Source: Escherichia coli O157:H7 (lineage in GTDB: Bacteria; Pseudomonadota; Gammaproteobacteria; Enterobacterales; Enterobacteriaceae). From it: 64,000 bases of DNA. The stretch lies in NCBI RefSeq assembly GCF_013167455.1, contig NZ_CP038328.1. One strand, given 5' to 3'. A program made the translations under genes and the position numbers. This document shows, piece by piece, positions 1 to 31,324 of this stretch. The notes beneath the pieces are model-generated. The model saw nothing but the letters and a program-made list of their open reading frames with translations. It was not told the DNA's origin and made no database searches. Each line of letters begins with the position of its first letter. Position 1 is the first letter of the stretch.

Positions 1-3000
1 ACTCAATAATCTCAGCCCAACTCTCATCAGTCTCTGGTACTGCCTCTGGCGTTGCCGAAACTTTAGTGTCAACGCTTTCCTGCGGTAAATGCACGGCTTT
101 ACGGCTGGTAAAGGTCATATCCGGCAGGAACTGTAACAGGTTTACCAGTCGCCAGAAGCCATTGAGTCCCGCTTCATAACCGTCATCCTGCGTATAGCGA
201 TCGTCAAAACAGATATGCAAACGCAGCCAGCTGCGCATTTGTGCGACGCTGGTCGTCGGTTTAATGGCTTGTTGTGGTAACACCGAAGCCAGCTCAATAA
301 ATTGCTGCGATGAGTTACAGCTATCGAGTAAACCACCAAAGACAAACGGTTCGTCTGGCAAAAGCTCTGCTAGCCGCCAAGCTGGCGCGTTTTCCTGCAT
401 TTCATAGGCATACTTTTGTTTCGTTCCCGCGTCCTGTGACTTCTTCACATCCAACCACACCCAGGCATGTGCAGCAGCCATTCTCTGCCATAACTGCGTT
501 CTTCCGCCCGGATCGGCGAGATAATCCAGCAGCAGTGCAAAACTGTTGCGTTCCCGGAACGACGCTTCAAGGGCCGCAAAGTTGGTATCATGAAACAGGT
601 TATAAAACTTAGGCTGTTTCATATCCGGGTTATGCCCAAGTCCCAGGACATCCTGAACATGTTTAAGCCCTGGCTCTTTGAGATCGGCCCACGTGACTGT
701 CCACACCCAGAAATTACCGCTATCCCGAATCGCCTGGCGTTTTTGCACATCCTCTGCGACGCTATTTTTGTGGAACGCAAAGCCATCAAGGAAAATAGCC
801 ACCGGTTTAATGGCATCAGACTGCATAAGCGGATATAGCACGTAATCCGGGCGACAAGGGATCCCCACCGCCTCTTTAGCGCCTAAATCCACCTGAGCTT
901 TAAGATGCCAGCTCATCATCGGTTCGCTGCGGGTGTTAATAATCCACCCAGCGCCCTGATGCGCGTAACTGCGACTGACAATCAGGTTTTTATTTTCTTG
1001 CAGGCAGCTAATAAACCGTTTTTCCAGCTCACTGCCCATCATGGCTTCGAGGGAAATGTTTTTGATGGAATCAATTACCCGTATCGAATCTCTTGCCTGC
1101 AAAATTTTCGCCAGCAAGAGACGCGCCTGATCGCGGGAGACATACTTCATGCGCCCACGGTCACGGTAAGCGTAAACGCAACGATAACAACCATCTTTAT
1201 GCGTATCATTGTTGCAACTGCATTCCACTATTGCCTGATAGGCCAGTTCAAGTAATTTCAGCAAATTGTCGGGAGTGCGCATCAGTTCTTTAAGAGAACC
1301 AGTCCCCCCCGGGACGGTATCGTAAATCACCAGATACTGCCGCCAGGATTCGCCTTCATTTTCCGGCTCGCGGTACACAACGCCTTTCAGGTGATCGACA
1401 TTCCCCTTGAAGTAATGTTTAAGACCGAGCTGGATCGCCGCCCCAAGAGAAGCCTCCACGACACGGTCATTACTGTAACTGCTTACCGGGAGCAGAATAC
1501 GCAACGCTTCTGACTCCAGCTGGCGATAGAGGTAGAGATAATCTTCGAACTTCGCCTTTTCCGGTTCCGTGCGATATTTGCAGCTCAAATCATGACGTGG
1601 TTCATGATCGCGAGGACGCTGCACCATGCCGCACCCGAGGCAAACTTTAAACCCGGTTCGCTTCTTCGCTTCTCCGGCAATCATCAACTCATTGGCATCA
1701 TCCGCCATTTTGCCGAAGTTGATATCCCGCAGGGTGACTTTGCTTAAAAATTCAAAACCAAACGGAACTTCGCCTTCCTCAATCGCGTATGCCGCCGATA
1801 CATCTTCTTTTTCGAAACTAACCAATAGCTGACGCTGGAAGAAAGCAGGTTCACGGCTGTCGCTCTCGTCGCTGATCTGGCTATCACGTGCGCTGGCGCG
1901 GGCATAAACCTGGCGAAGTTTCAGCAGCGTGGTTTTTTGTCCGGCATCGGCCCACCCCGGTGTGCCACATTTCGGGCAATATTTATGCTGGTCGCCCGTC
2001 TGGTCGATATTTTCGCTGTAGTTACAGTGGCTACAGATACGCCAGTTCTCCGGCTCAGAGACCTTCAGGTCTATCTGCTCAATTTCAACTTTATGCCCAC
2101 CGGCATAGAAATTATTCAGCGGAGCCAGCTCAGCCAGCGCCGTTGATGCCGGGCGTTCATATTCGAAAGTGGTGTTTTGATATTCACGTGCTTCCCCGCC
2201 TTCTTTACGCCGCCAGAGCACAGAACGTAACGTAATACCGGCTTCCGGGAAGGCGTAGTTAGGCAGCAGACCTTCATCCGTGAGGAAATTCAGCGTTTGC
2301 TTATTGTTGATTTGATTGACCAGCGCCATCAGCGCCTGCCGTTCCGAAGTTAACTCGCGCATATCGCTATCAAAGTTTTGATCGCGCGGCGCGTTCTCCA
2401 GTTTATCGATACTGCGCTTGAGTTTATCGATGCGTGAGCGCAAAGATTTGCGATCTTCCACCAGCAGTTTTAACGCTTCTTCGATACGCTGCACCAGCGA
2501 GCGTTGTCCTGGCGCGCCCTGAAGATAAGACAACAGCTGTTGGCGAGTTTCTGCGGCAAGATCGGGGAAGATTGCCGTAAATTGCGCAGCAATCTCCGCA
2601 TGATGCTGTTCGATATATCGCAGTAAGTTATACGGAAAACCCGATTTACGCCCGAACTCCAGCTCATCCAGCATCTGTTTGACGTTTTTACAGATAGCGG
2701 ATTCTGGTACACCGGTTTTCACCCAGTTATCCATACAAAAAGCTGCCAGCTGGCGTTCGAGAATAGCCGTTGCATTAAGGAAGACGCCAGGAGCCTGCAC
2801 CTGGCCCTGCATCATCTCCAGTGGTTCTTCAAAGAAAAACTGATCGTGCGGGTTCCCTTCTGCCACGGTAATGTTTAACGCGTTACCATCTTTACGACCG
2901 GCGCGACCAATACGCTGCAAGTAGTTGGCCTGAGCAGGTGGGACAGAACAGAGTAAAACGGTGGAAAGATCCCCAACGTCAATACCCATCTCCAGCGTCG

Positions 3001-6000
3001 GTGTTGCCGACAACAGGTTGATATTCCACGGTTGGTTGCCGCGGTAGAACGATTTTTCGGTGACTTCGCGATCTTCACGGCTAAGCAGCCCCGTGTGTTC
3101 TGCGCCCTGTACGCGCGCGATGTCCATGTTCTCCCAACGCCAGGTCGCCGTATTGTCGACTTCCTGGTAACGACCTTCACAACGTAAAGAGAGACAAGGC
3201 GCATTACGCCACTGCCAGCCTTGATCGGCCGGAGCCCGGACAACCTCACGGCAACATGAGCAATTAAGCTGAACGACGTCACGGCTCACCACCAGCGCCG
3301 AAGGCACCAGTCCCCAGGCTTCACGCCCTTTGGTGTCAAAATCTTTTACTACTCCGGCTATTTTCAACGCCGTAAACAGGCGTCGTAACACTGTTTCCGC
3401 AACGCTACTGATAAACAGATTATTGCCGTTACTCAGCGTGCGATTGATCCAATGCTGATACCAACTGGGGTTAGACTTCGCGCCAATCAGGCGATGGAAA
3501 CCATTAATTTTTTCAAACGACGCATAAGCCGGTTTACGCGTTTTCGGACCGATAGAAGGCATATAGCGCGAGGTACGCTCTTTTTGCGTCATCATAAAGG
3601 TCGTGCCATCACGGCGATAACTTTCGAACGCCGGATGCATAACGGCCCCGGCCTGGCGTTGATACCAGATAACCCCCAGCGCCAGGTGCGCTACCTGCTC
3701 GACGCTCACACCAGACATCTCATCACCCAGCTCTTCACAAAGCTGTTGATGCAGGGCGGTAATTGCCGGATTGAAGCGATCTTTATCCACTCCGGCAACG
3801 GCATAACCGGTGGCTTCCAGCGTACGTCCGATACGCGCGCGCAGGGTAAATTCGCTGTACACCTCCCAGTCGAGGCGCAGGGAAACCAGCTCCGGCAGAT
3901 CGGAGTTCTCCGCCAGTTTGCCTTCATTTTTCAGCGTCTGATAATCATTCAGCCACTGCATATTTGGTGCGATGACGTTTGCTGCAAAATGAGCATCGTC
4001 CGGTGAACGTTCACGCGTTTGTTGGCAAACACGCGCCGCGAACGCATCCAGCGGTAATGTCTCTTTTTCGCTAAGAACACTGGCGATTTGCCCACGAATC
4101 ATCAGCGGCCAGGTACGGGCAGTAAAGAAGCTGGCACGATGCGCGGCGTCTTGTACCGAGTCAGAAAACGTAATCAGCTTTTTATGTTCGTTGAACTGGC
4201 TGCCATAAAGCTGGTGAATCATCACCGCCGACAGACTGGCAGCCCGTGACCCCAGAATCGAAATCCCCTGTTTGCTGTTGCAGTACGGGCATTCATTAGC
4301 AAACTCCAGCTCGTCCTTACGCTCTTTGAGCATATCCGGGATCAGTACCTGCAACAGTTCCGTATGACCGCAATGTCCACACTGGACGCTGGACTGTCGG
4401 TTCAGTTTCAGACAGGTAGGACACAGTTTCTGGTGTGCGCCACTGACCGCTTTTTCGTTGTTATCCGGGAAAGCAAGGACGATGGAGCGCCCTTTTTCAA
4501 AGAACTGGCGATAAATGCCGTCGAGGTCTGTTTCCAACTGAACGCTTTGCCCATGACGCAGGCTGGCCCAGCCAGTTGCGTGGCAGTCACGGCAGTGGAT
4601 AACCGGCAAATAGTGTTCGCGATCTTCCACCGCCACATCATCGGCAAACACCAGTCGGGGCGTTTTCGCCACGCTGGCGACCAGACGACGCATCTCACGA
4701 AGCCACAACTGGGAGCGCAGTTGCACAAACGGCAGCACCGGACGCGCTTTCTTCGCCTGGAGACGTTTTTGCCGATCGTGTTCCGTTTCCGGTACTTCGA
4801 GACGTGCCTGCGCGATCAGTGCCAGAATGCTTTGCAGCACGCGTCGGGCATGGTCGGCGCTTTCTGCCAGCATGACCTGGAGATTTTCCAGACACTCTCG
4901 TTCAGAGAGGATCCCGCCTTGCAGATCATGGAGTAAGACATGCATCACGCTGTGGCGGCGTAACAGTGACCCCAGCGCAATACGCTTTTCACGCCCGTCG
5001 TCGCTCTCCAGATCGTCCGGGAGTTGCAAGTCGCTGTCGGGGAACCACAAAGGGATTTGCCCGTTAAGATACGCTACCGGGGTAGCGTAACTCTGCGGGT
5101 CCAGGGCCGAAGCGACCTCCGGCCCCGGATACTGACTGTACGCAATGGCGTAATTCTGCAAGTACTCCGCTGCCGTGTAGCGATCTTCGCGAATAACGGC
5201 GTCATCGGTAAACGGCTGGTCAAAGATTGTTTTTGCGTAATCGAGCAGTTGCCCCAGTTCGTCGCCGACGGTAGCTGATGTCCCGACGCAGGCGAATCGT
5301 TGGTTATCCACACCTATGTGATGCTTCAAACGTCGCACCAGACAGGCCAGATCCGACCCTTGCGCGCCATCAAACGTATGCAATTCATCCACGACCAGGT
5401 AACGCAATGAACCGGGCTGGTTGTAACGCCAGAGCGGCTGATCGCCAGGGCGCATCAGCAGGTAGTCGAGCATTTTGTAGTTGGTCAACAGGATGTCCGG
5501 CGGGCTTTCGCGCAGCGTGTGCTTACAGGTAATGACCTTTTCTGCCGACATTTTTTTGCTGGGTTCGATTTCGCTGTCGCCGACAAACAGGCCGACGGTC
5601 ACCTTGCCATGCAGTTGTGGATCGCTGGCGATGGTTTTGGCGAAACGGCTGGCCTGATCGGTTGCCAGGGCGTTCATCGGGTAGATGATAATCGCTTTAA
5701 CCCCGGCTTGTGACGCGCCCGCGCAGTGGTTGAGCAGCGGGAACATAAAACATTCTGTTTTACCGGAGCCGGTACCGGTTGCGACCAGCGTCGGCTGTGG
5801 CGCGTCGCTTCCCAGACGCTGAAATGCCCGGGCCTGATGCGCGTGCGGCGGGAACGGCAGCGTCAGATTAGGGAAAAAATTCAGCGGTAAGTCACTTTTA
5901 CGAAACGGCAACTGGGCGGAAAGGTATGGTCCTTTCAGCAGCGTTTCCGGCTGGGCCAGAAATTGCTCCAGCATTGAGACATTATCGTTATTCTCACCGT

Positions 6001-6088
6001 TAAACAGCGGGCTGTTTAGCGGGAACGCCGCCCGTAAAAAGGCGGCAACGCTGTCGGCGACCTGCCGACTGACAACGGACGGCAACAT
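1..6088 (-). CDS. Giant DExH-box helicase with C-terminal Cys-cluster/DUF1998-like region (DruE / DrmA-DrmB-like); partial, runs off window start (>2029 aa)
   Basis: Absent from ORF track because no stop codon lies inside the window. ATG at 6088-6086 overlaps the TGA of the upstream gene (TGATG). Hand translation of this minus frame starts MLPSVVSRQVADSV. Walker A TLVATGTGSGKTECFM was checked codon by codon at 5791-5744; DELH box, QRIGRAGR motif and Cys cluster ECSCNNDTHKDGCYRC (~1215-1168) were read by eye. The track reports no >=60 aa ORF in this minus frame anywhere in 1-6088, while the other two minus frames have several, consistent with one continuous open frame. Confidence 0.7.
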   Translation of the reverse strand, partial: MLPSVVSRQVADSVAAFLRAAFPLNSPLFNGENNDNVSMLEQFLAQPETLLKGPYLSAQLPFRKSDLPLNFFPNLTLPFPPHAHQARAFQRLGSDAPQPTLVATGTGSGKTECFMFPLLNHCAGASQAGVKAIIIYPMNALATDQASRFAKTIASDPQLHGKVTVGLFVGDSEIEPSKKMSAEKVITCKHTLRESPPDILLTNYKMLDYLLMRPGDQPLWRYNQPGSLRYLVVDELHTFDGAQGSDLACLVRRLKHHIGVDNQRFACVGTSATVGDELGQLLDYAKTIFDQPFTDDAVIREDRYTAAEYLQNYAIAYSQYPGPEVASALDPQSYATPVAYLNGQIPLWFPDSDLQLPDDLESDDGREKRIALGSLLRRHSVMHVLLHDLQGGILSERECLENLQVMLAESADHARRVLQSILALIAQARLEVPETEHDRQKRLQAKKARPVLPFVQLRSQLWLREMRRLVASVAKTPRLVFADDVAVEDREHYLPVIHCRDCHATGWASLRHGQSVQLETDLDGIYRQFFEKGRSIVLAFPDNNEKAVSGAHQKLCPTCLKLNRQSSVQCGHCGHTELLQVLIPDMLKERKDELEFANECPYCNSKQGISILGSRAASLSAVMIHQLYGSQFNEHKKLITFSDSVQDAAHRASFFTARTWPLMIRGQIASVLSEKETLPLDAFAARVCQQTRERSPDDAHFAANVIAPNMQWLNDYQTLKNEGKLAENSDLPELVSLRLDWEVYSEFTLRARIGRTLEATGYAVAGVDKDRFNPAITALHQQLCEELGDEMSGVSVEQVAHLALGVIWYQRQAGAVMHPAFESYRRDGTTFMMTQKERTSRYMPSIGPKTRKPAYASFEKINGFHRLIGAKSNPSWYQHWINRTLSNGNNLFISSVAETVLRRLFTALKIAGVVKDFDTKGREAWGLVPSALVVSRDVVQLNCSCCREVVRAPADQGWQWRNAPCLSLRCEGRYQEVDNTATWRWENMDIARVQGAEHTGLLSREDREVTEKSFYRGNQPWNINLLSATPTLEMGIDVGDLSTVLLCSVPPAQANYLQRIGRAGRKDGNALNITVAEGNPHDQFFFEEPLEMMQGQVQAPGVFLNATAILERQLAAFCMDNWVKTGVPESAICKNVKQMLDELEFGRKSGFPYNLLRYIEQHHAEIAAQFTAIFPDLAAETRQQLLSYLQGAPGQRSLVQRIEEALKLLVEDRKSLRSRIDKLKRSIDKLENAPRDQNFDSDMRELTSERQALMALVNQINNKQTLNFLTDEGLLPNYAFPEAGITLRSVLWRRKEGGEAREYQNTTFEYERPASTALAELAPLNNFYAGGHKVEIEQIDLKVSEPENWRICSHCNYSENIDQTGDQHKYCPKCGTPGWADAGQKTTLLKLRQVYARASARDSQISDESDSREPAFFQRQLLVSFEKEDVSAAYAIEEGEVPFGFEFLSKVTLRDINFGKMADDANELMIAGEAKKRTGFKVCLGCGMVQRPRDHEPRHDLSCKYRTEPEKAKFEDYLYLYRQLESEALRILLPVSSYSNDRVVEASLGAAIQLGLKHYFKGNVDHLKGVVYREPENEGESWRQYLVIYDTVPGGTGSLKELMRTPDNLLKLLELAYQAIVECSCNNDTHKDGCYRCVYAYRDRGRMKYVSRDQARLLLAKILQARDSIRVIDSIKNISLEAMMGSELEKRFISCLQENKNLIVSRSYAHQGAGWIINTRSEPMMSWHLKAQVDLGAKEAVGIPCRPDYVLYPLMQSDAIKPVAIFLDGFAFHKNSVAEDVQKRQAIRDSGNFWVWTVTWADLKEPGLKHVQDVLGLGHNPDMKQPKFYNLFHDTNFAALEASFRERNSFALLLDYLADPGGRTQLWQRMAAAHAWVWLDVKKSQDAGTKQKYAYEMQENAPAWRLAELLPDEPFVFGGLLDSCNSSQQFIELASVLPQQAIKPTTSVAQMRSWLRLHICFDDRYTQDDGYEAGLNGFWRLVNLLQFLPDMTFTSRKAVHLPQESVDTKVSATPEAVPETDESWAEIIE

Positions 6089-9000
6089 CAGGCGCTCTCC
6101 TTATCTTGTGCAAAGAACGCCCAGGCCACTTTGTAGTCATCTTCGCGATCTGGCTTGATAAACGGAGCCTGCCAGGTGACGGTACGGCGCTCACCTTCGT
6201 CGCTGCGGGTATAATCATCAAAGGTGACGCTGACGGTACCGGTTTTAAGATGTTTGACATCATCCCAACCGATAGCTTGATCGGTGCAGTCACCGCCGGT
6301 CCACTCCGGGCTGTCGACGTTAAAGACAAAGCCGTTTTTCAGGTCAGCTTTACGCGCGGTGCGAGGCAAGCCAACGCCCACCAGCCCTTTGCTTGGGGTA
6401 AAGATAATGCGACCGTTTTGATCGTACCAGGTATCCGCTTCGTACTGGCGCATCACCGGGAACTGAACGCGATAAATGGTAAGCAGCTCTTCGAGAGTTA
6501 ACCCCAGCGCCTGCGCCACCAATACGTCGATTTCCACCAGCGCCTGACGACGACTGTAGTCAGAGCGTAAAGCGCAGTTACGCTGCCACTCTGGGGTCAG
6601 TTTGGCGAAGAAATCCTGGGGGAGCTGCGGGAGATCGCGGCTCCAACGCTGGGTGTTGAAGTCTGGGGTGTAGCAGGATTGCCAAAGGCCAGCATATACA
6701 TCATTTACAGAATTTAATGATAATACTAAGCAGTATAATAATGCCTTTTGTCTCGGATTGAATAATACGTATGAGAAACCATCAAGCATCTGATGTAAGT
6801 TTGCCTTGCCAGTAGATTTACAAATAAAATCAAAAGGTAAAGAAAAACACATACCTGAATGTTCGAGTAACAGATTCTGTGAGCTATAGCAGTAAGAACG
6901 TACTGCGTTCATGTGACTTATTTCTGGCGGATAAATAGCACTAATTAGTGTACGTTCCCCCGATTGAGCCAACATGGCTCTGATAGCTAAGCGATAATAA
7001 TCTGTTACCTTCTTCGGTTCATCTTCAGCCAGTTCAGTCCATGTAACGCATGGAGTACGTTTTGCATACTCCTGTGCATCACATGCCGGAATGTAGTTAG
7101 TGCGCGGCAGATAGTCGTCAGGCAGAGTTAGCAAGTCCAGGCAGTCATAATCGCTGTTAAGCGTACAGTTTTCGCGCGGAGTCTTGTAGAACGGCGTCCC
7201 AACAAAGAAATGAGGGCCAGACAGTACCCATTGTGATGAATCTTGAGGGAATTGAGTCTGCCGTAAAATTGTCCCATCCCTCTGAGCATATGTTTCATCG
7301 AACATAACCGTTGAAAAATACTGCCCCTGCAAATCACCTAATCTATTCGGCTGATTAGCAAACTTTTCCAGTACAGCAACAAGTTGTTTAGCATGTAAGG
7401 CTGGCAAACGTGCCTGCCAGGCTGGCGTTCCTTCGCTGTCATATAGACGAGCAAATAATTCTAGCTCATGAGTGGCGATACTTATTAATCGAGAACGGTG
7501 GCCAGATGTGTTCCATACAACTTTTAATTTTCCCTCGCTCTCAATCTCGTCTTTGAGACCGGGAATGTCCCCACTGCCAGAATGTTCAAAACATGCATCA
7601 ATAGTTTGCGGAGCATACAAATTAGATATATGTTCAAATCCCACTGTGCTAGGGCTAGCAGAATAAATATTGCTGCTAAACTTCGCATGGTGATCAACTT
7701 CAACAAACAAATTTAACTCATTCTGAAACTGAAAATGCGCCCTCAGCCTCGGATATACCGCCGCACGTAATTGCCCGCCTTTCGGGTCATCATAAATCCC
7801 TTCCGGGTGCAGGAAACCTGCCACGCCTTTCTGCGCCCCTAATCGCCAGGCCTGCGGCAGAAAGCATTTATACAAGTTGGTCTGCACCCCGCGCAGTACC
7901 GGGTAGTTCTGCTGCGCATTCAGGAAGTTTTGCATCCCTTCACAGCCTTCATACTCGCTGCGCCAGGCCGCTTCCAGCGCCGGGATCTGGTTAAAGGTAT
8001 CAATACGCAACGTTGCCAGCTTCGAGGCGCTCAGCTTACGCAGCACAAATTCCGGCTCGTAATCACCCAGCACGCCCGCTTCCTGCCATTCCACTTTCAG
8101 CCACGGCGGGTTTCCGAGCATCAGGTCAAAACCGCCGCGCTCGGCAAACAGGTCGCAGAACTCCAGATCCCAGTGGAAGAAACGGTGCTGCTTTCTCAGG
8201 GCATCGACAATCGCCAGACGCGGCAAATGACGGAACAACACCTCGGTTTTCAGACGACCAGCAACAGAAAACAGCGAAGACTCTTCTCGCAGCAGGCCTT
8301 CTTCGGCAAACAGATCGCCGGTGGTGTGCTCCGCAACTTCAGTGACTTTTTCCGTGATTACAATCCCGTCAAGCAGGGTTTCAATCTCAAACAACCAGGT
8401 GCCGCGATCCGGTAGCTCATCGGCTTTGTCGATCGGCCAGAACCACAGCGCGCACCAGTAGTCCATTACCCAACGCAGCTTCTGGTAGGCGCTGTTATCT
8501 TCAAGACGACCGCTAAAGGTTTCATCTTTACTGCTCAGCGAAGAACGCGTCTGCTCGCTGTTTTCTGCCGGCCACACCGGGTAGCTGTCGGCGGTTTTCA
8601 GACGTTCTGCTTTAAGTTGCTGGCGATAGGTGTTCCACAGTGCTTCCACCTTTTCGCTGATACGCTGCACATCAGCAATCTCATGCCCGGCAAAGCTTTT
8701 AATAAACTCTTTGCGCCAGCTGTCCAGCGCTTTGAAGTCATCCGGATAACGCTGCTTAACAGTTTTATCGCTGTAGTTAGCCATACCGCCGTCGGGCAGC
8801 AGGAAGTGGAAAATCTGCGTCTCTTCACGCGGCGTGTTCATCGCCAGTTCGACCGGCTCGCTGTTAAGCCAGCTCGGATCTTTGGCTTTTTTGTAGGTCA
8901 GTTCGCTCTTGTTGAACACCTGACGGCGCGCGCCCACCAGCGAGTTACCGCAGTGCAGCTGGTAACCAAACCACGGTACAAACGCATCGCCACTAATGGC

Positions 9001-11022
9001 GTTCAGCCACAGCGACACTTCCGCCAGTTCCACCGCCACCGGGTTTAAGTCCACGCCGAAAACGTTGTTGTCGGCAATGTACATTTTCACCCGCTGTAAC
9101 TCCTGGGTGTAACGATCCTGCGGAATACGGCGACCTTCCGCCTGCTGCTTGTGGAACAGATACGCTTCCGCCAGCTGGTTGATGGCTTCGTTAAGGAACG
9201 CCGCGCTGCCCATCGCCGGTTCGCACACGGTGAGGTTTAAGATGGCATCAGCTTTGGCGTGCGGATCGCTAATGGGATCAATCTGCTCCTTAAACAGTTC
9301 TTTCAGGGCATATTTAACCAGTGAGCGGGTCAGCACTTCCGGGGTGTAATAAGAGGCAGATTTCTCACGGTCGCGCCCGGCCATACGGTAGATAAAGCTG
9401 CCTTTGCGGTGAATGCGCAGACTGCCGTCTTTCTCGTAGACCTTCTCGTCTTCGTGGTATTTGCTAATCTCATCCTTACTGACGAAGTAACCCGTCTCCA
9501 GCTCGTTAAACTCTTCCCCGGCTTTCTTCACCTCGTAGAGATCTTCGCTGGCGAAGAATCCGCGATAGGAGAGCAGCGCCTCATACACCGCACCCAACTG
9601 GTTGATACCCAACTGGCGATAAGAAATACGTCCGCGGCGGTTAAAGCGCCCTTTGGCCGGGCGGCTTAACGACATCGCCTGGATAATCTGTTGCAGGGTT
9701 TCGTTACGGAATACCACGCGGTTAAGAATGCGCGTGTTGTTGGCATCAAACAGATGACTTTCCAGACGCGGGACGCTGAACTGATGACTATGGATGGTGA
9801 TCCGGTCGCCGCTCTCCAGGTCACTCTGCATTTTCACGCCGCCGTTGTAGCCTTCGCGCACCAGTTTAAACAGCATATTCAGGCTGTCGTGGAAGTAGCG
9901 CCCGTTGCGATCTTCTTCGCTGGTCAGCGGGATCATCTCCAGATCGCGCAACGTTTCCAGGCTGTAACCTTGCAGATAGGTTTTGGCGGTCATTGGCGCA
10001 TAACCCAGCTCCGGGCGCGCTTCAATGTAGAACAGGAACAGCAGGCGGTACATGTAACGCAGACATTCGCGGCTCAGTTCATCCGGGTCCACCGCACGAT
10101 TACCTGTATAGTTTGCCAGGCCACGGTCGATCAGATAATGCATCGCTTCGTTGCCCAGCAACTCAATGCTTTCGCGCAGGGCATATTTCAGATCTTCCGA
10201 AACACCAAACGCATGTTTGTGCGAATTGTCATCCAGCGAGTCAAGATAAGGTGCCCCACTGCCCGGCAGCAGAGAATCTTTATGTAACAACACCGCAGTC
10301 GCTTTCAGCGTATCCGTTTCACGACGGCTTAAAATCTCTTCAAAATCAAAACGTAGCAGACGGTTTTGCGCCCACTTAGTACGGTCCAACAACAATAGCT
10401 GACGGTTACCGAGCAGCAGCACAAAACGCGGCGGTTCATTTTGGGTGAAGACCGCCGTAGAGAGCAAATCCTGCCAGCTGCGATATTCACCGTTGGCTTT
10501 TTTGCGCAGGCTGTCGTGCTTATGTTTGTCGGTATCCGCCGGGAATTGCGCGGTCAGTAAGGAGAGCGCCAGCGGATCCAGCGTTCCTTCTTCCTGATCG
10601 TGTGCTTCAACAATCCACAGCCACGGGCTACCGTCAGTGCTGTTGTAACGCGCCAGTACCGGCAGCGGTGTATCGTCATCCAGCATTTGGATCTGTGGCG
10701 TAATTTCGTAGCCCAGCGCCTTTAACAATGGCTGCCAGCGATTACGTTGATCGGCCAGACGCTGCGGGATCTGACGCTGTTTTTCGTGCTCGGCAAGTTT
10801 GCGGAAAAACTCAGTCGCCAGACTGTTAAACTGGTTCCACGGAGCGCGGTATCCCGGCTCCACGTCTTTGCCCTGTTCACGAGCGGCACGCTCCGCTTCA
10901 CGCGCTGCATTTTCCTGGGCTATCCAGGGTTCCAGCACATCGCGGATATCACTGGTGAAAACCTCACCCAAATAGTGGTTAGAGTAAAATTCGTTTTCGT
11001 TATTAATACCGACCAGCGCCAT
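6088..11022 (-). CDS. Large gamma-class N6-adenine DNA methyltransferase, PglX/MmeI-like (1644 aa), candidate DrmMI-like
   Basis: Track ORF. AdoMet motif I-like CEPAMGSAAFL, motif IV NPPW (FDLMLGNPPWLKV), YYTPEVL motif and N-terminal LRYMYRLLFLFYIEAR block typical of Type IIG/IIL and BREX/DISARM methyltransferases. GGAGGG Shine-Dalgarno 8 nt upstream; 2-bp gap to the upstream gene. Confidence 0.8.
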   Translation of the reverse strand: MALVGINNENEFYSNHYLGEVFTSDIRDVLEPWIAQENAAREAERAAREQGKDVEPGYRAPWNQFNSLATEFFRKLAEHEKQRQIPQRLADQRNRWQPLLKALGYEITPQIQMLDDDTPLPVLARYNSTDGSPWLWIVEAHDQEEGTLDPLALSLLTAQFPADTDKHKHDSLRKKANGEYRSWQDLLSTAVFTQNEPPRFVLLLGNRQLLLLDRTKWAQNRLLRFDFEEILSRRETDTLKATAVLLHKDSLLPGSGAPYLDSLDDNSHKHAFGVSEDLKYALRESIELLGNEAMHYLIDRGLANYTGNRAVDPDELSRECLRYMYRLLFLFYIEARPELGYAPMTAKTYLQGYSLETLRDLEMIPLTSEEDRNGRYFHDSLNMLFKLVREGYNGGVKMQSDLESGDRITIHSHQFSVPRLESHLFDANNTRILNRVVFRNETLQQIIQAMSLSRPAKGRFNRRGRISYRQLGINQLGAVYEALLSYRGFFASEDLYEVKKAGEEFNELETGYFVSKDEISKYHEDEKVYEKDGSLRIHRKGSFIYRMAGRDREKSASYYTPEVLTRSLVKYALKELFKEQIDPISDPHAKADAILNLTVCEPAMGSAAFLNEAINQLAEAYLFHKQQAEGRRIPQDRYTQELQRVKMYIADNNVFGVDLNPVAVELAEVSLWLNAISGDAFVPWFGYQLHCGNSLVGARRQVFNKSELTYKKAKDPSWLNSEPVELAMNTPREETQIFHFLLPDGGMANYSDKTVKQRYPDDFKALDSWRKEFIKSFAGHEIADVQRISEKVEALWNTYRQQLKAERLKTADSYPVWPAENSEQTRSSLSSKDETFSGRLEDNSAYQKLRWVMDYWCALWFWPIDKADELPDRGTWLFEIETLLDGIVITEKVTEVAEHTTGDLFAEEGLLREESSLFSVAGRLKTEVLFRHLPRLAIVDALRKQHRFFHWDLEFCDLFAERGGFDLMLGNPPWLKVEWQEAGVLGDYEPEFVLRKLSASKLATLRIDTFNQIPALEAAWRSEYEGCEGMQNFLNAQQNYPVLRGVQTNLYKCFLPQAWRLGAQKGVAGFLHPEGIYDDPKGGQLRAAVYPRLRAHFQFQNELNLFVEVDHHAKFSSNIYSASPSTVGFEHISNLYAPQTIDACFEHSGSGDIPGLKDEIESEGKLKVVWNTSGHRSRLISIATHELELFARLYDSEGTPAWQARLPALHAKQLVAVLEKFANQPNRLGDLQGQYFSTVMFDETYAQRDGTILRQTQFPQDSSQWVLSGPHFFVGTPFYKTPRENCTLNSDYDCLDLLTLPDDYLPRTNYIPACDAQEYAKRTPCVTWTELAEDEPKKVTDYYRLAIRAMLAQSGERTLISAIYPPEISHMNAVRSYCYSSQNLLLEHSGMCFSLPFDFICKSTGKANLHQMLDGFSYVLFNPRQKALLYCLVLSLNSVNDVYAGLWQSCYTPDFNTQRWSRDLPQLPQDFFAKLTPEWQRNCALRSDYSRRQALVEIDVLVAQALGLTLEELLTIYRVQFPVMRQYEADTWYDQNGRIIFTPSKGLVGVGLPRTARKADLKNGFVFNVDSPEWTGGDCTDQAIGWDDVKHLKTGTVSVTFDDYTRSDEGERRTVTWQAPFIKPDREDDYKVAWAFFAQDKESA

Positions 11023-11024
11023 GA

Positions 11025-13883
11025 TTAACCCTCCGCTCCGGTGATAACAGCAATTACCTGAATGTAGGGTTCTTTTTCAGTCGTCATGGTGTCCTCAATC
11101 CATTCGATATAGCTGTCAAAATTGTGTTCGATTTCGCGTTGTCTCTGCTCTTTACGGCTCTGCTTGACTGACAATTGCTGTTTGTTATCGGCAAAATCCA
11201 GCTCAAGTTGGCTCAACTGCCGCCCACGCAAAACGTCCAGCTTTTGCAGATGCTCATTCAGTTGCTGGTTAATGTGCGTTTCAAACGCATTCCGATCATG
11301 GATGAATACCTCCCGGGCATGAGCAATAGCCGCTTCCAGTAAATCCTGCTGGCGTTGGTGATTACGATCTTTACCGCCGCTGTTAGTCAGCTTGTTACTC
11401 AACTGCGGATGACGTTGTAAAAACTCAGCGAAAGGCTGACTGCCGATTAGCGATTCACGGTTAAAGCTCACCACTATCCACGGGTTCACCATCGGATGTG
11501 ATTTACGGTTCGGGAATAACCCGGAAAGAATGAAGTGATCTTCATCGGGTTCAAGCAGGTATGGCAGCCGGATAACCGGAGCCTGATGACGACCAAAAGC
11601 CGAAGAGATTTTATCGTCCAGCCACTGCACTACCGGGTTGATTTGCCAGAGATACTGCACATCGGGCCAGGCATGTTGCTCACCGCGAGCGCGCGCAATC
11701 GCGTCGGTGATGACGGTTTTATCCTGACTTAAATAGAGCTGCCAGTTCTCCGGGGCAATTTCAGGCGGTAGCTGGTTGAAGCGGCGGCGTAACTCCTCCG
11801 GTGCCACCAGCGACAAGGTATTATCAGGCAAGGTTTCATACTGGATAGTTTGACCACTGGCTTTCAGGTAACCCAATGCTCTTTCGCAGTACGCCTGTTC
11901 GCTGGCAAACAAGCTGGTGTCTGTTTCGGTGACCATTGAGGCATCGCTGGAAACCGCACTGCATATTTCGCCAAACAGATCGTGTTCGGCGCTTTCCGAG
12001 ACGTTGCTGTTCAGCAGTTGATCAAACAGGCTGGCACCATCATCCTGCATCATGAACTCTGCAACCTGCTCTTCTTCCTCTTCCTGGGTAAATTTGCCGG
12101 TAAACTCCGAACTGTCCCCAATGTTCTTCTGCGCCTGTTCGTCTTTGTTGATCAACACTTCCAGTACGCGCATATCGCCATTGATCTGTGGTTCGCTGGC
12201 CTCGGTAAGCAGATAGCGGATTTGGGGCTGATGTTTTTGCCCATAGCGGTCAATACGCCCGTTACGTTGCTGGAATACCATCAACGACCACGGAATATCA
12301 AAGTGAATCATTTTGTGGCTAAGGTGATGCAGGTTGATCCCTTCAGATGCCACATCCGAACAAACCAGAAGACGCAACGGCGACTGCGTTTTACCAAAGG
12401 CTTCTACGGTTTCCATCAATACCGTATCGCCCTGATCGCCGCGCAGCGTGGCGATCTGGTCATCTTTCAATTTCAGATCCGCTCGCAGTTGCTGTTCGAG
12501 GAACTCCAGCGTTTTAATACTTTCGGTGAAGATCACCAGGCGATCTTCCGTGTTATTGGCTTTCCAGGCGAGGTCTTTTCGGATGGTGTCGAGCAGCAAC
12601 TGGTATTTGCTAAACTGGCTGGCATCAATGTTATTCAGCGCCAACAGCAATGACTCCAGTTCGTTGATCTGGCTCTGGCTATTATGATCTTTACGGCTCT
12701 CAAGACGCTTCAGACGATTCGCCACGACGCTGGCACACGCCATCGGGCTGGAAAATAGCGCTTTTTCGAGGGTTATCTTGAACAGACGACCTTTGTTAGA
12801 CTGGGCCTGTTCATCGTCATCATCACGGAACTGGCTCTCAACCAGACGACGGTATGCTTCTTCTTCGGCACCGGATGCCAGGCGAGTCAATTTGACAATA
12901 TTGCGCTCGGGGAACTCGCCGGACATCTGATCTTTCACGTCTTTTTTGAAGCGACGGACAACCAGATTTTTATCGGCAAAATCGGCGTATTCATACTCTT
13001 TCGGGTTGGCGATCGCCGTCGGGTCAAGCATGTTCATCAGGCTGGCAAAACTTTCAGCCTTACCATCATGCGGTGTTGCTGAAAGCATAATCAGCGTATC
13101 GCTGCGCCCGGCGAGCAGTTTTGCCAGTTTACTGCGTAACGAACTGGTTCCACGTTCTGCGACGTTATGGGCCTCATCAATGACAATAATATCCCACCAG
13201 GCATTTTCCAGATGGTGACGATATTCAATGTCTTGTTTCAGCGTATCGATGGAGATAATGGTCTTGTCAAAATAGTGGAACGGGTTGTGGTTGGTTGGGA
13301 TGCGGTTACGCACCTTTTGTAAACCAGCAGAATCCAGGCGGGTCAATGGGATCGCAAAACGGCTCCAGAACTCCTTCTGGAATTGTGTCAGCATCGATTT
13401 AACCGCCAGAACCAGAATACGTTTTCCGCGCCCACGACGGATCAGTTCCGAAACCAGAATACCGGCTTCCAGCGTTTTACCCAGACCAACAGCGTCGGCA
13501 ATGAGTATCCGCTGACGCGGTTGTGCCAGCGCCATCCGCGTAGGATCGAGCTGAAACGGCATGGAATCCATCGCCGCCAGATGACCAAAATGGACTTTAC
13601 TGTCTGTCGGTACGCGTTGGCGTAACTGACTTTCAATATACAACTGTGCCGCTTGATAATTGGCGGATTCATCTTCCACCAAATGCGTTTTTGCGGGATC
13701 CAGGATCTCTACTTTTTGTTCCAGTTTGGTCAGAAATAACCCTTCTTTACCGCGCACAAGCTCTGAAATACCATCGCAGGTCAGCAAATACCCACCATCA
13801 CCACTGTCATCCGCCCGGCGAATACGCCATTCGGCATCACGAATAACCACCCGCATACCAGGTGCATAATTTTGCTTATTCAT
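11025..13883 (-). CDS. SNF2-family helicase (952 aa), candidate DrmD-like
   Basis: Track ORF. Motif I DAVGLGKT, motif II IVIDEAHN (DEAH), motif III LSATP, C-terminal helicase motifs DVASEGINL and QQRNGRIDRYGQ. Confidence 0.8.
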   Translation of the reverse strand: MNKQNYAPGMRVVIRDAEWRIRRADDSGDGGYLLTCDGISELVRGKEGLFLTKLEQKVEILDPAKTHLVEDESANYQAAQLYIESQLRQRVPTDSKVHFGHLAAMDSMPFQLDPTRMALAQPRQRILIADAVGLGKTLEAGILVSELIRRGRGKRILVLAVKSMLTQFQKEFWSRFAIPLTRLDSAGLQKVRNRIPTNHNPFHYFDKTIISIDTLKQDIEYRHHLENAWWDIIVIDEAHNVAERGTSSLRSKLAKLLAGRSDTLIMLSATPHDGKAESFASLMNMLDPTAIANPKEYEYADFADKNLVVRRFKKDVKDQMSGEFPERNIVKLTRLASGAEEEAYRRLVESQFRDDDDEQAQSNKGRLFKITLEKALFSSPMACASVVANRLKRLESRKDHNSQSQINELESLLLALNNIDASQFSKYQLLLDTIRKDLAWKANNTEDRLVIFTESIKTLEFLEQQLRADLKLKDDQIATLRGDQGDTVLMETVEAFGKTQSPLRLLVCSDVASEGINLHHLSHKMIHFDIPWSLMVFQQRNGRIDRYGQKHQPQIRYLLTEASEPQINGDMRVLEVLINKDEQAQKNIGDSSEFTGKFTQEEEEEQVAEFMMQDDGASLFDQLLNSNVSESAEHDLFGEICSAVSSDASMVTETDTSLFASEQAYCERALGYLKASGQTIQYETLPDNTLSLVAPEELRRRFNQLPPEIAPENWQLYLSQDKTVITDAIARARGEQHAWPDVQYLWQINPVVQWLDDKISSAFGRHQAPVIRLPYLLEPDEDHFILSGLFPNRKSHPMVNPWIVVSFNRESLIGSQPFAEFLQRHPQLSNKLTNSGGKDRNHQRQQDLLEAAIAHAREVFIHDRNAFETHINQQLNEHLQKLDVLRGRQLSQLELDFADNKQQLSVKQSRKEQRQREIEHNFDSYIEWIEDTMTTEKEPYIQVIAVITGAEG

Positions 13884-13951
13884 CGGTTTTTCTGTCTATT
13901 TGGGGCAGTGGCGGTAACGTCATCCTGAAAAATGTGGCGCGGCACACTGCG

Positions 13952-13987
13952 ATAAAAAAGAGGGCCTTAAAGATATCATGAAGGCCC
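13952..13987 (-). terminator. Rho-independent terminator downstream of the DruE-like gene
   Basis: On the minus strand: GGGCCTT stem, 12-nt loop, AAGGCCC, followed by CTTTTTT (plus-strand A-run 13954-13959). Confidence 0.5.
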
Positions 13988-14106
13988 CCGGCAAAGTGAC
14001 AAAATGGGAGGGAATGCGCATAAATTGCGCATGATTTTCAAACAAAAATTATTAAAAAGTGAGCTGGGTCAACTCCCCTGGAAGATATCCCCAGGGGAGC
14101 AATTAT

Positions 14107-17100
14107 TTATCCAGCGATAATATAACTCCTAAGGTCATTACCCGGGGCAACAGCTCGCGCTCGCGTGTTTGCCAGCCGTTCAACTTGCTGCGGTACTCGC
14201 AGGGCAAAATCAAAGAAGGTATCTTCAATACAGCGCCAGTAGCTAAGCCCCATGTCGAGCAGGACATAATGCTGACTGCCATCGCTGAAGGTGACTGTCA
14301 GTTCTCGTCCATGCTCCGTACTCTGGTTATCCCCCGTTAACCAGCTAATTGCTCCCGGCCACGCAGGCCCCAGATATCCTTCTTCAAGTAAAGTGGTCAC
14401 AACCTGCTGACGATCTTCCTCATTAAGCCACGCGTTATAGAGAGCGTCGTGTTGGCGAGAGTTGTAATCCAATTTTTTGACGCAAACAGTGAGGCTGGCG
14501 CGTTCCGCCATTCCCTGTTCAACCAGCTCGGTTAAGATTTCACCTAACAAACGCGCCGTGAATGGGCTATTAAGATAACGATCGCTGTACTCAACATGCG
14601 TTATCTCTTTGTGGCGGGTAAATGCCTGCTTCCAGCCAGCGTGCTGTTGCGTGACTAACGACCAGAAACGCGAACCAAAACCTTCCAGCGGCCCGTCCAG
14701 TTGTTCACAGAGATTGATGCGCACCGCCCCGGTGGGTAAGGCGGGCAGTAAATCTTCTGCACTTAAGGTCTGACCCGAGAAGGTTTTTCCGGACGTTCCT
14801 TTAAGTGTCACTACTGGTGAAGACGCACTTTGTCCCCATAATTCACCAGGTGCAACGGTAGCGCTGTCGTCTGCGGCCCACTGTTGGCTTTGCCCTTCGC
14901 GAGTCACCTGCGCAAGCCAGCGCCCCTTTCCTTGCATGAGCTGCGCAGTGGCAATGGATTTCACTTGTAAGCGACCTCCCGGCATCGCCGCCAACGCGGA
15001 AAGCTGATGTCTGGAGCTATCAGTTAAGTTTGCCAGCGGCGTGGCCACCAGCAACTCAACATTCCCACCGGAGGAGGCAAACTGGAGCAACTCTTTAAAT
15101 AATGGCCATTGGGCAAAGTCCCACTGTTCCTGCGGCCCCGCAAGAACCAGCGAGCAGGAGTCATAAATCTCGCTGTTCAGGCATTGCGCAATACGTAAAC
15201 TCAGAGGGTTAGTTTCAACCCGGCTACCATCGCCGAAGTACTGATATTCTGGCGCGAGGTTAAGTCGCTGCAACCGTACATTGGTAAGCAGGGTTAATGC
15301 ATGGTGACGATCTAATCTGTTGACATAATGCTGACTGTCGTAGCTGAGCAAGCAGTGGTGACAGAATTTATCGCAACTGCAATCGAGCAATTTTCTGGCG
15401 TAATTAAAGACATCAGCCCAATGGTCGATCAATTGCACTGCATAACCTGCACCACCCGCATTATTGTCGTAAATGAAGATGGAATATCCGGTATAGCCAT
15501 TGATATCGCGCGCTTGCTGCGTCGTCACGCCCAGCTCAGTATTTTCGATACCCAATTTATGCGCTAACCCTTCACGCAAAGCGACCGCAAGGGAACGCGC
15601 GGCAACCTCATCACGGATCAACAGGCCATTATCATCATTGAGTTGCAGCTCAACCATATCTGTACGACTGCTATATCCCAACCACAGATCTTTATGCACA
15701 TGACCGTGGCACAATTTATTGCTCCCCTGACGATCGTTACTGCCCCCTCGCAACAGGTAATGCGTATTTTCCCTCTCTGGGTTCTTTAGATTTTCAGGGG
15801 TACGCTGGGGTTGAGTTTGAGATTCTGCCCGACCACATGAGAGGCAAATTGCGTAGCCGTGCCCAAATTCCCCTTCACTGAAGTGGAACAATTCCCCACT
15901 ATGGCTAAAACGGTAACGTCCTAGCCCAGCATCGGGTAAAGAAACCCACACCGAAGACGGTACAAGAACACGTGGATCTTTCCAGGGAAGTTGTGCAGGC
16001 ATGGATACATCATTATGTGCCTGATAACGAATATCTGTCGCAAAACCAACAGGCTGTAAATAACGCTTCACATCAAGTTGCTGTATATCCGCTTTGCAGT
16101 GACTACATTCGACAGGATGGGTAGTACTGGTTGCCCCCGCACCACATTTACGGCAATGCCAGAACCACGGAATATGATGATCGCCTGACAGCTCCTGCCC
16201 GCTGGCAAGCACCTTGCCAAGCATAATGCCCGAGGAACGATATACTTTTCCGCCCAATACCACATCTGCACCAGGCGCATACTCGCGTAATGCTGTAGGC
16301 AAATCACGGCTGGGCAATTTTTCAATACGACGAGAAAAGCTTTCTCCCCCTTCATTAGGGTCAGCCTGAGTGGCTTTTATTGCGCGACGTTTTTCCAGCT
16401 CATCTGCCGTCAGATAATTGAAATTGACTACGCCAACCGGGAAACCATGCCCCGGCAGGAACGCTTCACTAATGAGTTTAGAAAACAGATATGCACCGCG
16501 ATAATCACGAAGCTGATAAGCGATGGCTTTACCTGCTGGTGTTTCTTCCCACGCGCTGTTATCCGCCTTCAACGCTTCGATATTTTCCAACAGTATCGCA
16601 AGTTGGCTTCTCCAGCGGATATCAACCTGCTGCATCATTGCTTGTGTGCGGGTCAAGAGCTGGGTTGCCGTCAATGACATCAGTACGGTTCCCTGAGTAA
16701 GGCGTTTAAGTTTATCCGCCAGCTGATCGGCCTGGTGATTTAACCAATGGAGAAAACGAAGACACTGGCTCTCATCACCTTCAAAGAACCATTTGCAACT
16801 CAGTTTTGTCGCATCAGGAACTTCAGCTCGTAAAAACAGACCTAAAACCAGGGCATTAACATGTCGTTGAACAATACTACTGCTCCCAAAACGAACCCGT
16901 GGCGCACTGGCAGTAGTGTTGAACGCCCAGAGGGGGTCTTTGAATACCTCCATTCCATGCGCCGTGTTTTTACATAACGTAATGGCAGCAGATGCACTCT
17001 CTCCACGACGCCCCGCGCGACCTGCACGTTGCAAATAATTTGCCGGCGCTGGAGGAACGTTGTTCATTGCCACCAAACTCATACCACCAATATCCACCCC

Positions 17101-30859: not shown

Positions 30860-31324
30860 CTACTTTCTCAGCTTGTCCCACCGAACCGCAGATACAATAC
30901 CCCAGTTGCCGCTAGGATTAGGCCTACGCCATTTTGCTGTCTCCATGCTACGAAGATACTCAAGAGCTTCAGAAAACGTGCCAAACCGCTTCTGAGCCGT
31001 TTTATCACCTACGCCAAACGAGCCATCGCGAGTGCTTGCCAGCCCGGGATGAAAACACGAGCCATCAGCTGCATAAGGAACCAGTAATTCCGGGTCACTA
31101 TCTTCAGATGAATCAGACACCAATAGTCGCCACGGCTCAACACTCAGAGCATTAGCCAGCACCTCAATCGCATCCAAAGACGCATTAGAGCCACCGCGTT
31201 CAATGCGGCTCATATAGCTACGAGCAAAACCACACCGATCGGCAAAGGCTTCTTGGCTCATTCCGGTGGCAATGCGCAACTCTTTTACTCGTTGTCCAAA
31301 CAGTTTTCTCAGGGTCATTTTCAT
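30860..31324 (-). CDS. XRE-family helix-turn-helix transcriptional regulator (154 aa)
   Basis: Track ORF; N-terminal HTH LRIATGMSQEAFADRCGFARSYMSRIERG. Confidence 0.7.
   Translation of the reverse strand: MKMTLRKLFGQRVKELRIATGMSQEAFADRCGFARSYMSRIERGGSNASLDAIEVLANALSVEPWRLLVSDSSEDSDPELLVPYAADGSCFHPGLASTRDGSFGVGDKTAQKRFGTFSEALEYLRSMETAKWRRPNPSGNWGIVSAVRWDKLRK

Follow-up and report, generated by a model that had tools for sequence, protein, structure and literature searches.

Organization of the arm genes

The window, i.e., the whole 64,000-nucleotide stretch of DNA analysed here, is located on the E. coli O157:H7 chromosome at O-island 172 / SpLE6; it is 100% identical to O157:H7 genomes, and its positions 1-14000 are 100% identical to EC4115. 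Three genes, armA, armB and armC, are sequentially organized at its left end, all on the minus strand, as are all features described below. The gene armA (11025..13883; WP_001041505.1) encodes a 952-aa SNF2/RapA-type helicase that is BrxHII/DrmD-like, armB (6088..11022) a 1644-aa PglX/YeeA-like N6-adenine DNA methyltransferase, and armC (1..6088, the first 2029 of 2113 codons) a YprA-family DExH helicase with a fused DUF1998 and predicted C-terminal nuclease domains. The tight coupling of the three genes described in an earlier note on this DNA is confirmed: the armA stop codon TAA and the armB ATG are 2 bp apart (TC), and the armB stop codon and armC ATG overlap by 1 nt (TGATG). That note had also read the third frame as open up to the window edge. 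Indeed, minus-strand translation from 6088 to 1 yields 2029 codons with zero stops, far beyond chance, and armC is missing from the list of open reading frames because frames running off the window go unlisted.

The final 84 codons of armC and the whole of armD fall outside the window. Extending the contig by means of EC4115, as the note had proposed, completes the third gene at 2113 aa (WP_000937974.1), followed by armD with a 4-nt overlap, so that the four genes encode proteins of 952, 1644, 2113 and 704 aa. Past armD, EC4115 carries a transposase remnant and then the nan and fim genes. No PLD gene is visible in the window, as the note had said; its suggestion that one may lie further out did not hold, since none was found past the edge in EC4115 and the next gene is UvrD/GajB-like. 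The same gene order (952 aa, ~1640 aa, 2113 aa and a 704-aa UvrD-like protein) is found in EC4115, EDL933, ATCC 8739 and plasmid pYLPD7b. Vibrio cholerae has the same four genes with the order kept, and a Desulfobacterales genome has them in A-B-C-D order with inserted genes.

Upstream of armA, a 224-bp region (13884..14106) separates it from druE and contains a terminator-like hairpin (14075-14061) and a promoter-like site (14002-13975), both calls being consensus matches only. The promoter-like site is consistent with the cloning of armABCD under native promoters (PMC12458937). Beyond this region, on the same strand, lies a canonical Druantia type III, a separate system (14107..23780) consisting of druH (20421-23780) and druE (14107-20430), with full-length PADLOC matches to DruH3 and DruE3 (E=0). 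Both Druantia III and Zorya II adjoin armA-armC on the upstream side.

Domain architecture of the helicases

ArmA contains the Pfam domains SNF2-rel_dom (1.7e-15) and Helicase_C (7e-13), with the Walker A lysine K136 and the DEAH aspartate D236 both at their published positions. Its best PADLOC match is DrmD (1.4e-99), followed by BrxHII (9e-60). It scores 349.7 bits against the NCBIfam DrmD equivalog NF038317, under the cutoff of 610, and 120.6 bits against the NCBIfam model NF038318, under the cutoff of 950; none of the four Arm proteins attains the curated cutoff of any NCBIfam model.

The third frame had been reported to carry both a helicase core and a DUF1998-like Cys cluster, and profile searches bear this out. 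ArmC has a RecA1/DEAD domain (5255..5839, aa 84-278, Pfam DEAD 3.6e-22), a RecA2/Helicase_C domain (2891..3112, aa 993-1066, Pfam Helicase_C 2.4e-10) and an MZB/DUF1998 zinc-binding domain (1175..1444, aa 1549-1638, Pfam PF09369 7.3e-13). Between RecA1 and RecA2 lie inserted domains totalling ~700 aa, in which CxxC pairs are conserved: C499/502, 556/559, 570/573, 600/603, 943/946 and 965/970 are kept in 25-26 of 26 homologues, and the Cys cluster C1483/1486/1503/1623/1625/1634/1637 is invariant in the 26 homologues. K110 and D234 match published positions. The C-terminus models as a Vsr-type PD-(D/E)xK nuclease domain (677..1030, aa ~1687-1804) with predicted activity, in which D1748, D1768, G1769, H1773, D1780 and R1784 are invariant. 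A sequence search of the PDB returned only the DruE and YprA helicase cores for ArmC and nothing for its C-terminus; structures of ArmB and of ArmC are both absent from the PDB.

ArmD, the fourth protein, encoded outside the window, is a 704-aa UvrD-like helicase (Pfam UvrD-helicase 5e-23) with K266 and D454 at published positions. In the PDB it matched UvrD, PcrA and Rep by sequence; a GajB structure was not among the matches, and nothing was found for the N-terminus. The N-terminus is a RelE-like domain (aa 1-110), for which RNase activity is predicted and in which R62, D64, Y67 and R68 are among the conserved residues.

The operon had been described as DISARM class-1-like, and an ordinary DISARM class 1 (DrmD, DrmMI, DrmA, DrmB, DrmC) with the helicase gene mis-read or fused would explain why gene 1 best matches DrmD in PADLOC, gene 2 matches DrmMI (6e-57) and gene 3 weakly matches DrmA (4e-14). 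In both, an SNF2 helicase is joined by a large adenine methyltransferase and by a YprA-family helicase together with DUF1998, and methylation is probably combined with restriction. However, in-frame stops splitting the third frame into DrmA- and DrmB-sized genes were looked for and none was found: helicase and DUF1998 form one unbroken 2113-aa frame in the complete genomes examined, and the 120 best of >7600 homologues are almost all ~2100 aa long. DrmA and DrmB are separate in DISARM class 1, whereas they are fused here with ~700 aa of zinc-rich inserts; a PLD nuclease (DrmC) acts there, whereas here the helicase itself carries a modelled Vsr-type nuclease; and the downstream gene encodes an additional UvrD-like helicase with a RelE-like domain, with no PLD gene. 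The DrmD equivalog score, 350 bits, stays far from its cutoff, and in PADLOC the helicase resembles DruE (DruE3 4e-104, partial) far more than DrmA, as anticipated by the note's reading of a DrmA-DrmB fusion or DruE-like helicase, with which Bell et al. agree (PMC12458937). Given the unbroken helicase-DUF1998 frame and the absence of separate drmB and drmC, DISARM class 1 was rejected, with next to no probability left to it; what stands of the description is a related, coupled defence operon.

The likeness to DruE raises another reading, a further Druantia type in which a DruE paralogue with new partners forms part of the adjacent Druantia III. In PADLOC, gene 3 best matches DruE models; a gap of 224 bp separates the operon from druHE, its upstream neighbour on this strand; and Druantia III has been shown to act synergistically with it (PMC12458937). 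ArmC (2113 aa) and DruE (2107 aa; structures 9tu7 and related entries) are both YprA-family DExH helicases with RecA1, a large insert, RecA2, MZB and a C-terminal nuclease region. Nevertheless, the match of ArmC to DruE3 is limited to two partial stretches (348 bits), whereas the neighbouring DruE reaches 2185 bits and covers positions 4-2051 of 2055; identity between the two is 23-34% in the conserved cores, the RecA1 regions being 34% identical. The C-terminus of ArmC is Vsr-like in the model, whereas that of DruE has two PLD-like nuclease domains (PMC12458937). Cloned armABCD defends by itself, and Bell et al. place ARMADA in a clade apart from Druantia (PMC12458937). The cassette also occurs away from an intact druE: on a plasmid, armABCD is intact while druE is truncated, and in Vibrio cholerae druE is not evident, since a single upstream gene came into view, truncated at the locus edge and with no Pfam hit on record. 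The operon partners are an SNF2 helicase, a methyltransferase and a UvrD-like helicase rather than DruH, DruA-D or DruM/F/G, and DruH is assigned to the separate upstream druHE pair. A new Druantia type was thereby rejected as very improbable.

Correspondence with ARMADA type II

The locus is almost certainly armA-armB-armC of the four-gene ARMADA type II (armABCD). ARMADA type II is a known system, named and tested in two preprints of September 2025 on the same locus, and is rediscovered here; the note's statement that the gene combination cleanly matched no described system is thus superseded. Gene content, the strict A-B-C-D order, domains, host and island all agree with the published system, and nothing differs. 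A YprA-family helicase with MZB in one polypeptide is preceded by an SNF2 helicase and a PglX-like methyltransferase just upstream, and the fourth gene, a GajB/UvrD-like helicase in the definition, is UvrD-like in EC4115, EDL933, ATCC 8739 and pYLPD7b. The Pfam domains of the Arm proteins agree with the published architecture, in line with the profile check that the note had called for, which recovered SNF2-rel_dom, Helicase_C, DEAD and MZB/DUF1998 clearly and Eco57I/MmeI_Mtase weakly. The eight residues that Bell et al. mutated (ArmA K136/D236, ArmB G605/N971, ArmC K110/D234 and ArmD K266/D454) are all found at their published positions in the expected motifs. RefSeq accessions of ArmA, ArmB, ArmC and ArmD (4/4 proteins) are shared between EC4115 and EDL933, which rules out a sequence difference from the EDL933 armABCD.

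Both papers that define ARMADA are preprints (PMC12458937; 10.1101/2025.09.22.677730). In one, armABCD from NCTC 12900, cloned under native promoters, confers defence alone (PMC12458937); the other, a study of EHEC, used deletion mutants of EDL933 (10.1101/2025.09.22.677730). ARMADA II acts directly and non-abortively against many phages, and both preprints report loss of protection upon deletion of any single gene (PMC12458937; 10.1101/2025.09.22.677730). All four arm genes are essential according to Bell et al. (PMC12458937), and the armD deletion is less severe in the EHEC study (10.1101/2025.09.22.677730). Defence requires the Walker motifs of the helicases as well as the NPPW motif of the methyltransferase (PMC12458937; 10.1101/2025.09.22.677730). 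Druantia III, which the note had left unconnected to the operon, acts in synergy with ARMADA II (PMC12458937; 10.1101/2025.09.22.677730).

Of the contributors to the unusual phage resistance of EHEC O157:H7, ARMADA II is reported to be the strongest, a point relevant to phage therapy for these strains. In evolution it connects DISARM with Druantia. By definition, the YprA helicases of the ARMADA and Druantia lineage would share a BrxA-like insertion behind RecA1, where ArmC shows the ~700-aa insert with its conserved CxxC pairs. New here are the Vsr-like model for the ArmC C-terminus, the variable block of the ArmB alleles and a C-terminal likeness between ArmC and ZorE.

The ArmB variable region and a putative self-marking mechanism

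The armB DNA is 100% identical to that of EDL933 and Sakai. In PADLOC, ArmB best matches REase_MTase_IIG (PDLC03614, 1.7e-286) over its full length, with DrmMI and PglX also among its hits, and its Pfam matches to Eco57I/MmeI_Mtase are weak, with no nuclease domain found by Pfam; a PDB sequence search gave zero matches, so that a solved relative is absent. The catalytic NPPW motif (8101..8112, aa 971-974, context 'fdlmlgNppwlkv') and G605 fall at published positions, and N971A abolishes defence (PMC12458937). Downstream of NPPW lies a hypervariable block (6583..8025, aa ~1000-1480), a putative target-recognition region. In an alignment of six E. coli alleles, aa 1-960 and 1480-1638 are 95-100% identical, whereas aa 1000-1480 are 22-80% identical, the most divergent sub-blocks being aa ~1120-1200 and ~1360-1440. 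Unlike ArmB, ArmA, ArmC and ArmD are >99.4% identical across the compared alleles.

Such a hypervariable C-terminal region is also a feature of Type IIG and IIL enzymes and, together with the full-length PADLOC match, would fit a stand-alone Type IIG enzyme sitting between unrelated helicase genes. However, ArmB lacks a Pfam nuclease domain, its gene is coupled to both neighbours (2-bp gap to armA, 1-nt overlap with armC), the four-gene order is kept in distant taxa, any single arm deletion weakens or abolishes defence (PMC12458937; 10.1101/2025.09.22.677730) and armB is insufficient on its own according to the literature. The stand-alone enzyme was rejected on the coupling, the conserved order and the deletion phenotypes, and we give it a very slim chance. 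BREX was also considered: ArmB is PglX-like and ArmA BrxHII-like, and the methyltransferase is needed for defence, as is PglX; strains without armB could be made and studied. Yet the genes for BrxA, BrxB, BrxC, PglZ and BrxL are absent, and the effector of ARMADA is a YprA-family helicase with a predicted nuclease. BREX was rejected, with PglZ and BrxC unannotated anywhere in the 44-kb locus and the PglX NCBIfam models scoring far below their cutoffs.

Within ARMADA type II, ArmB, probably with the SNF2 motor ArmA, would place N6-methyladenine on an allele-specific sequence and so mark host DNA as self, and may have a part in restriction too, like the BREX PglX. By analogy with MrfA and DruE, ArmC would load on single-stranded or forked invader DNA and translocate 3'-to-5', and unmarked DNA would be cut by the predicted Vsr-type nuclease fused to it. 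ArmD, with its UvrD-like helicase and RelE-like domain, may help processing or add another layer of action. That the ArmB alleles differ only in aa ~1000-1480 while the rest of the cassette is >99.4% identical supports sequence-specific marking, and the two variable sub-blocks hint at a two-part recognition site.

We propose, tentatively and as a possibility somewhat short of an even chance, that ARMADA II may read DNA sequence, acting by epigenetic restriction whose specificity is re-set by swapping ArmB aa ~1000-1480. If so, the self-marks would differ from one E. coli lineage to another with the rest of the machine unchanged, which runs against the structure-only recognition proposed in the EHEC preprint, whose authors expect DNA structure, not sequence, to be recognised (10.1101/2025.09.22.677730). 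When the ArmB methylation motif was sought in the literature, neither ARMADA preprint was found to mention methylation. Methylomes of O145:H28 contain GATC and CTGCAG only; the annotation of at least one O145 genome lists armB as a frameshifted pseudogene, so the lack of an ArmB motif in the O145:H28 methylomes is uninformative. The mapped variable region of ArmB offers a direct handle on the question of the methylation motif.

ArmC and the neighbouring ZorE are alike at their C-termini, over the final ~73 residues of ArmC. As a second possibility, this common module could serve for docking or regulation and so underlie the cross-talk among the co-located systems.

The armABCD operon is the published ARMADA type II system

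All three arm genes in the window lie on the minus strand. armA (gene 1, 11025-13883) is an ATG-started ORF of 952 aa whose TAA stop is followed, after 2 bases, by the ATG start of armB (gene 2, 6088-11022), a 1644-aa ORF. The armB stop and the armC (gene 3) start overlap by 1 nt in the sequence TGATG, and armC translates from 6088 down to 1 as 2029 codons without a stop, a length that cannot have arisen by chance; it is absent from the ORF list solely because the frame runs off the window. ORF calls and translation thus bear out the two ORFs, gap, overlap and long third frame described in the earlier note. Extended leftward in EC4115, an O157:H7 genome identical to window 1-14000, armC is complete and uninterrupted at 2113 aa and is overlapped by 4 nt by armD (gene 4), encoding a 704-aa UvrD-helicase-domain protein, past which lie a transposase remnant and then nan and fim genes. 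A PLD (DrmC) gene had been suggested as possibly lying past the window; however, the EC4115 annotation past armC contains none, and UvrD-like armD stands there instead.

A full-text literature search identified two September 2025 preprints describing the system. Bell et al. found that the cluster, when cloned out of E. coli O157:H7 NCTC 12900, protects against 13 of 80 phages by non-abortive defence for which all four genes are essential; defence is lost with ArmA K136A/D236N, ArmC K110A/D234N, ArmD K266A and ArmB N971A, and partly lost with ArmD D454N and ArmB G605A (PMC12458937). The second study, on EHEC, assigns armABCD to z5899-z5902 of EDL933 O-island 172, identifies ARMADA II as the dominant defence of EDL933, demonstrates its synergy with Druantia III and reports that variation across the island falls mostly within armB (10.1101/2025.09.22.677730). 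In Druantia preprints from 2026, ARMADA II already figures among the established systems of the neighbourhood.

In our translations of the window and its EC4115 extension, all eight residues mutated by Bell et al. occupy the exact published positions within the expected motifs: GKT at ArmA 136, ArmC 110 and ArmD 266, DEAH at ArmA 236, DELH at ArmC 234, DEAQ at ArmD 454, NPPW at ArmB 971 and a glycine at ArmB 605. EDL933 and EC4115 share the RefSeq accessions of the four Arm proteins (WP_001041505.1, WP_001229642.1, WP_000937974.1 and WP_000218177.1), and armB matches both EDL933 and Sakai at 100% DNA identity, the Sakai annotation placing it within SpLE6. Every testable defining feature of ARMADA type II was found, and the locus is therefore that system, which had been given its name and validated at this very site, contrary to the earlier view that no known system cleanly matches. 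The architecture had been recognised correctly, and the accompanying proposal of a relative of DISARM with a DruE-type helicase that fuses DrmA and DrmB amounts, in effect, to the published "missing link" view.

Domain composition and conservation of the cassette

ArmA contains Pfam SNF2-rel_dom and Helicase_C domains, and its best PADLOC match is DrmD (1.4e-99), followed by BrxHII. ArmB has only weak Eco57I/MmeI_Mtase matches in Pfam, with a full-length PADLOC match to REase_MTase_IIG (1.7e-286) and a further one to DrmMI (6e-57). ArmC carries DEAD (aa 84-278), Helicase_C (aa 993-1066) and MZB/DUF1998 (aa 1549-1638; E=7e-13), and ArmD carries UvrD-helicase and UvrD_C. For none of the four proteins does any NCBIfam model reach its curated cutoff; the DrmD equivalog scores 350 bits on ArmA against a cutoff of 610. 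DISARM class 1 is rejected, as separate DrmA and DrmB genes and DrmC are missing and ArmA falls short of the DrmD cutoff; ArmC matches DrmA only weakly in PADLOC (4e-14). Its best PADLOC matches are DruE models, yet over partial stretches only, at 348 bits versus 2185 for the neighbouring true DruE, and its identity to DruE is 34% over RecA1 and 23% over the stretch that runs from RecA2 to the end of MZB. Lacking a full-length DruE match for ArmC and Dru partner genes in the operon, Druantia is likewise rejected, as is BREX, for which PglZ and BrxC are missing. The tight coupling of the genes, the conservation of the cassette and the published genetics all argue against a stand-alone Type IIG system.

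More than 7600 ArmC homologues were retrieved; among the best 120, almost every one measures ~2100 aa and has DEAD, Helicase_C and MZB. Residues D1748, D1768, G1769, H1773, D1780 and R1784 are invariant among 26 homologues 39-80% identical to ArmC. Conserved Cys pairs at 499/502, 556/559, 570/573, 600/603, 943/946, 965/970, 1352/1355, 1371/1374, 1483/1486 and 1623-1637 in the homologue alignment agree with the multiple zinc modules attributed to such helicases.

The same four genes occur in the same order in Vibrio cholerae (52% identity), with an integrase gene ~8 kb downstream. Two further loci are variants of ARMADA II: Desulfobacterales HSG2 (L010 1-20472) keeps the arm order, with AAA_15/AAA_21 ATPase genes inserted on both sides of armC, separating it from armB and from armD, and in Ectothiorhodospiraceae BW-2 (L009 1-18623) GmrSD (Type IV) and IS elements fill the place of armB between armA and armC. 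E. coli plasmid pYLPD7b (L007 3436-25378) carries an island copy in which armABCD is intact, whereas druE has lost its 5' end to IS903B and is flanked by several IS elements; the cassette thus moves between replicons. Judged from these gene arrangements, the conserved order elsewhere and the intact armABCD beside a truncated druE, the cassette forms a separate unit with no dependence on Druantia.

The ArmB variable block, the ArmC tail and a proposed mechanism

ARMADA II as such is already known; the present analysis makes two small additions, namely a variable block in ArmB and a C-terminal module common to ArmC and ZorE. An alignment of six E. coli ArmB alleles shows 95-100% identity in aa 1-960 and aa 1480-1638 and 22-80% in aa 1000-1480, where two sub-blocks, near aa 1120-1200 and 1360-1440, diverge most; ArmA, ArmC and ArmD are >99.4% identical in the same comparison. 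The variable block closely follows the catalytic NPPW motif, in the position of the target-recognition domain in Type IIG/IIL and PglX enzymes, which points to sequence-specific methylation by ArmB, with specificity that may be re-set by domain exchange. In the parts of the literature accessible to us, including the two ARMADA preprints and the published O145:H28 methylomes, we found no ArmB methylation data. In E. coli O145 RM12522-C8, the annotation gives armB (L011 501-5409) as a pseudogene, frameshifted and split, so that the O145:H28 methylomes are unsuitable for deriving an ArmB motif.

The final ~73 residues of ArmC (aa ~2024-2096; EC4115 locus L001 14750-15010, just past the window edge) show 32% identity to the ZorE C-terminal tail (aa 281-347; pairwise E=1e-8) and are also matched by the NCBIfam ZorE model (E=3e-4). 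This module is kept in all ArmC homologues examined; DruE gave no match to it, and the literature text available to us contained no mention of the similarity.

ARMADA II defence is direct, and requires the ArmA and ArmC ATPase motifs, the ArmD Walker A and the ArmB NPPW (PMC12458937); any single deletion among armA-D weakens or abolishes protection (PMC12458937; 10.1101/2025.09.22.677730). We propose that ArmB, which the SNF2 motor ArmA may guide, places m6A on host DNA at an allele-specific site and, by analogy with BREX PglX, may also take part in restriction. ArmC would load on single-stranded or forked invader DNA, move 3'-to-5' as MrfA and DruE do, and cut the DNA with a predicted Vsr-type domain, and ArmD may help target processing or add an RNA-directed activity via a predicted RelE-like domain. 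The EHEC authors prefer recognition of DNA structure over sequence (10.1101/2025.09.22.677730).

The leuX island and its other cargo

Many E. coli O157:H7 chromosomes match window 1-14000 at 100% identity. Among 5426 complete E. coli genomes, 527 contain it, and 16 of the places lie on plasmids. Directly upstream of armA, past a 224-bp gap and likewise on the minus strand, lie druH (1119 aa) and druE (2107 aa) (14107-23780), which by their full-length PADLOC DruH3/DruE3 matches (E=0) are canonical Druantia III. Divergent from druHE is Zorya type II, zorA2-zorB2-zorE by RefSeq gene names (23935-27465, plus strand), with zorE itself at 26362-27465 (plus strand), beyond Druantia III. leuX, a tRNA-Leu(CAA) gene (40415-40499, minus strand) at the island end, and an adjacent integrase-sized ORF of 657 aa (38393-40366, minus strand), called integrase by position against the EC4115 annotation, mark the attachment site.

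A gene at 27850-28857 (plus strand) encodes a Type IV-like, phosphorothioated-DNA-binding restriction endonuclease (NF045808, 417 bits versus a cutoff of 180), and EC4115 has a nanM gene fragment annotated between it and zorE. ORFs at 31441-32214 (plus strand, 257 aa) and 32366-33682 (plus strand, 438 aa) have no PADLOC or NCBIfam match and adjoin an HTH "control protein"-like gene (30860-31324, minus strand); they are possibly uncharacterised cargo of the leuX-integrated element. An IS3-family transposase ORF (37128-38018, minus strand) has no annotated counterpart at the corresponding position in EC4115, which is ~1.3-1.4 kb shorter than the window there, so an IS insertion particular to the window's strain is likely.
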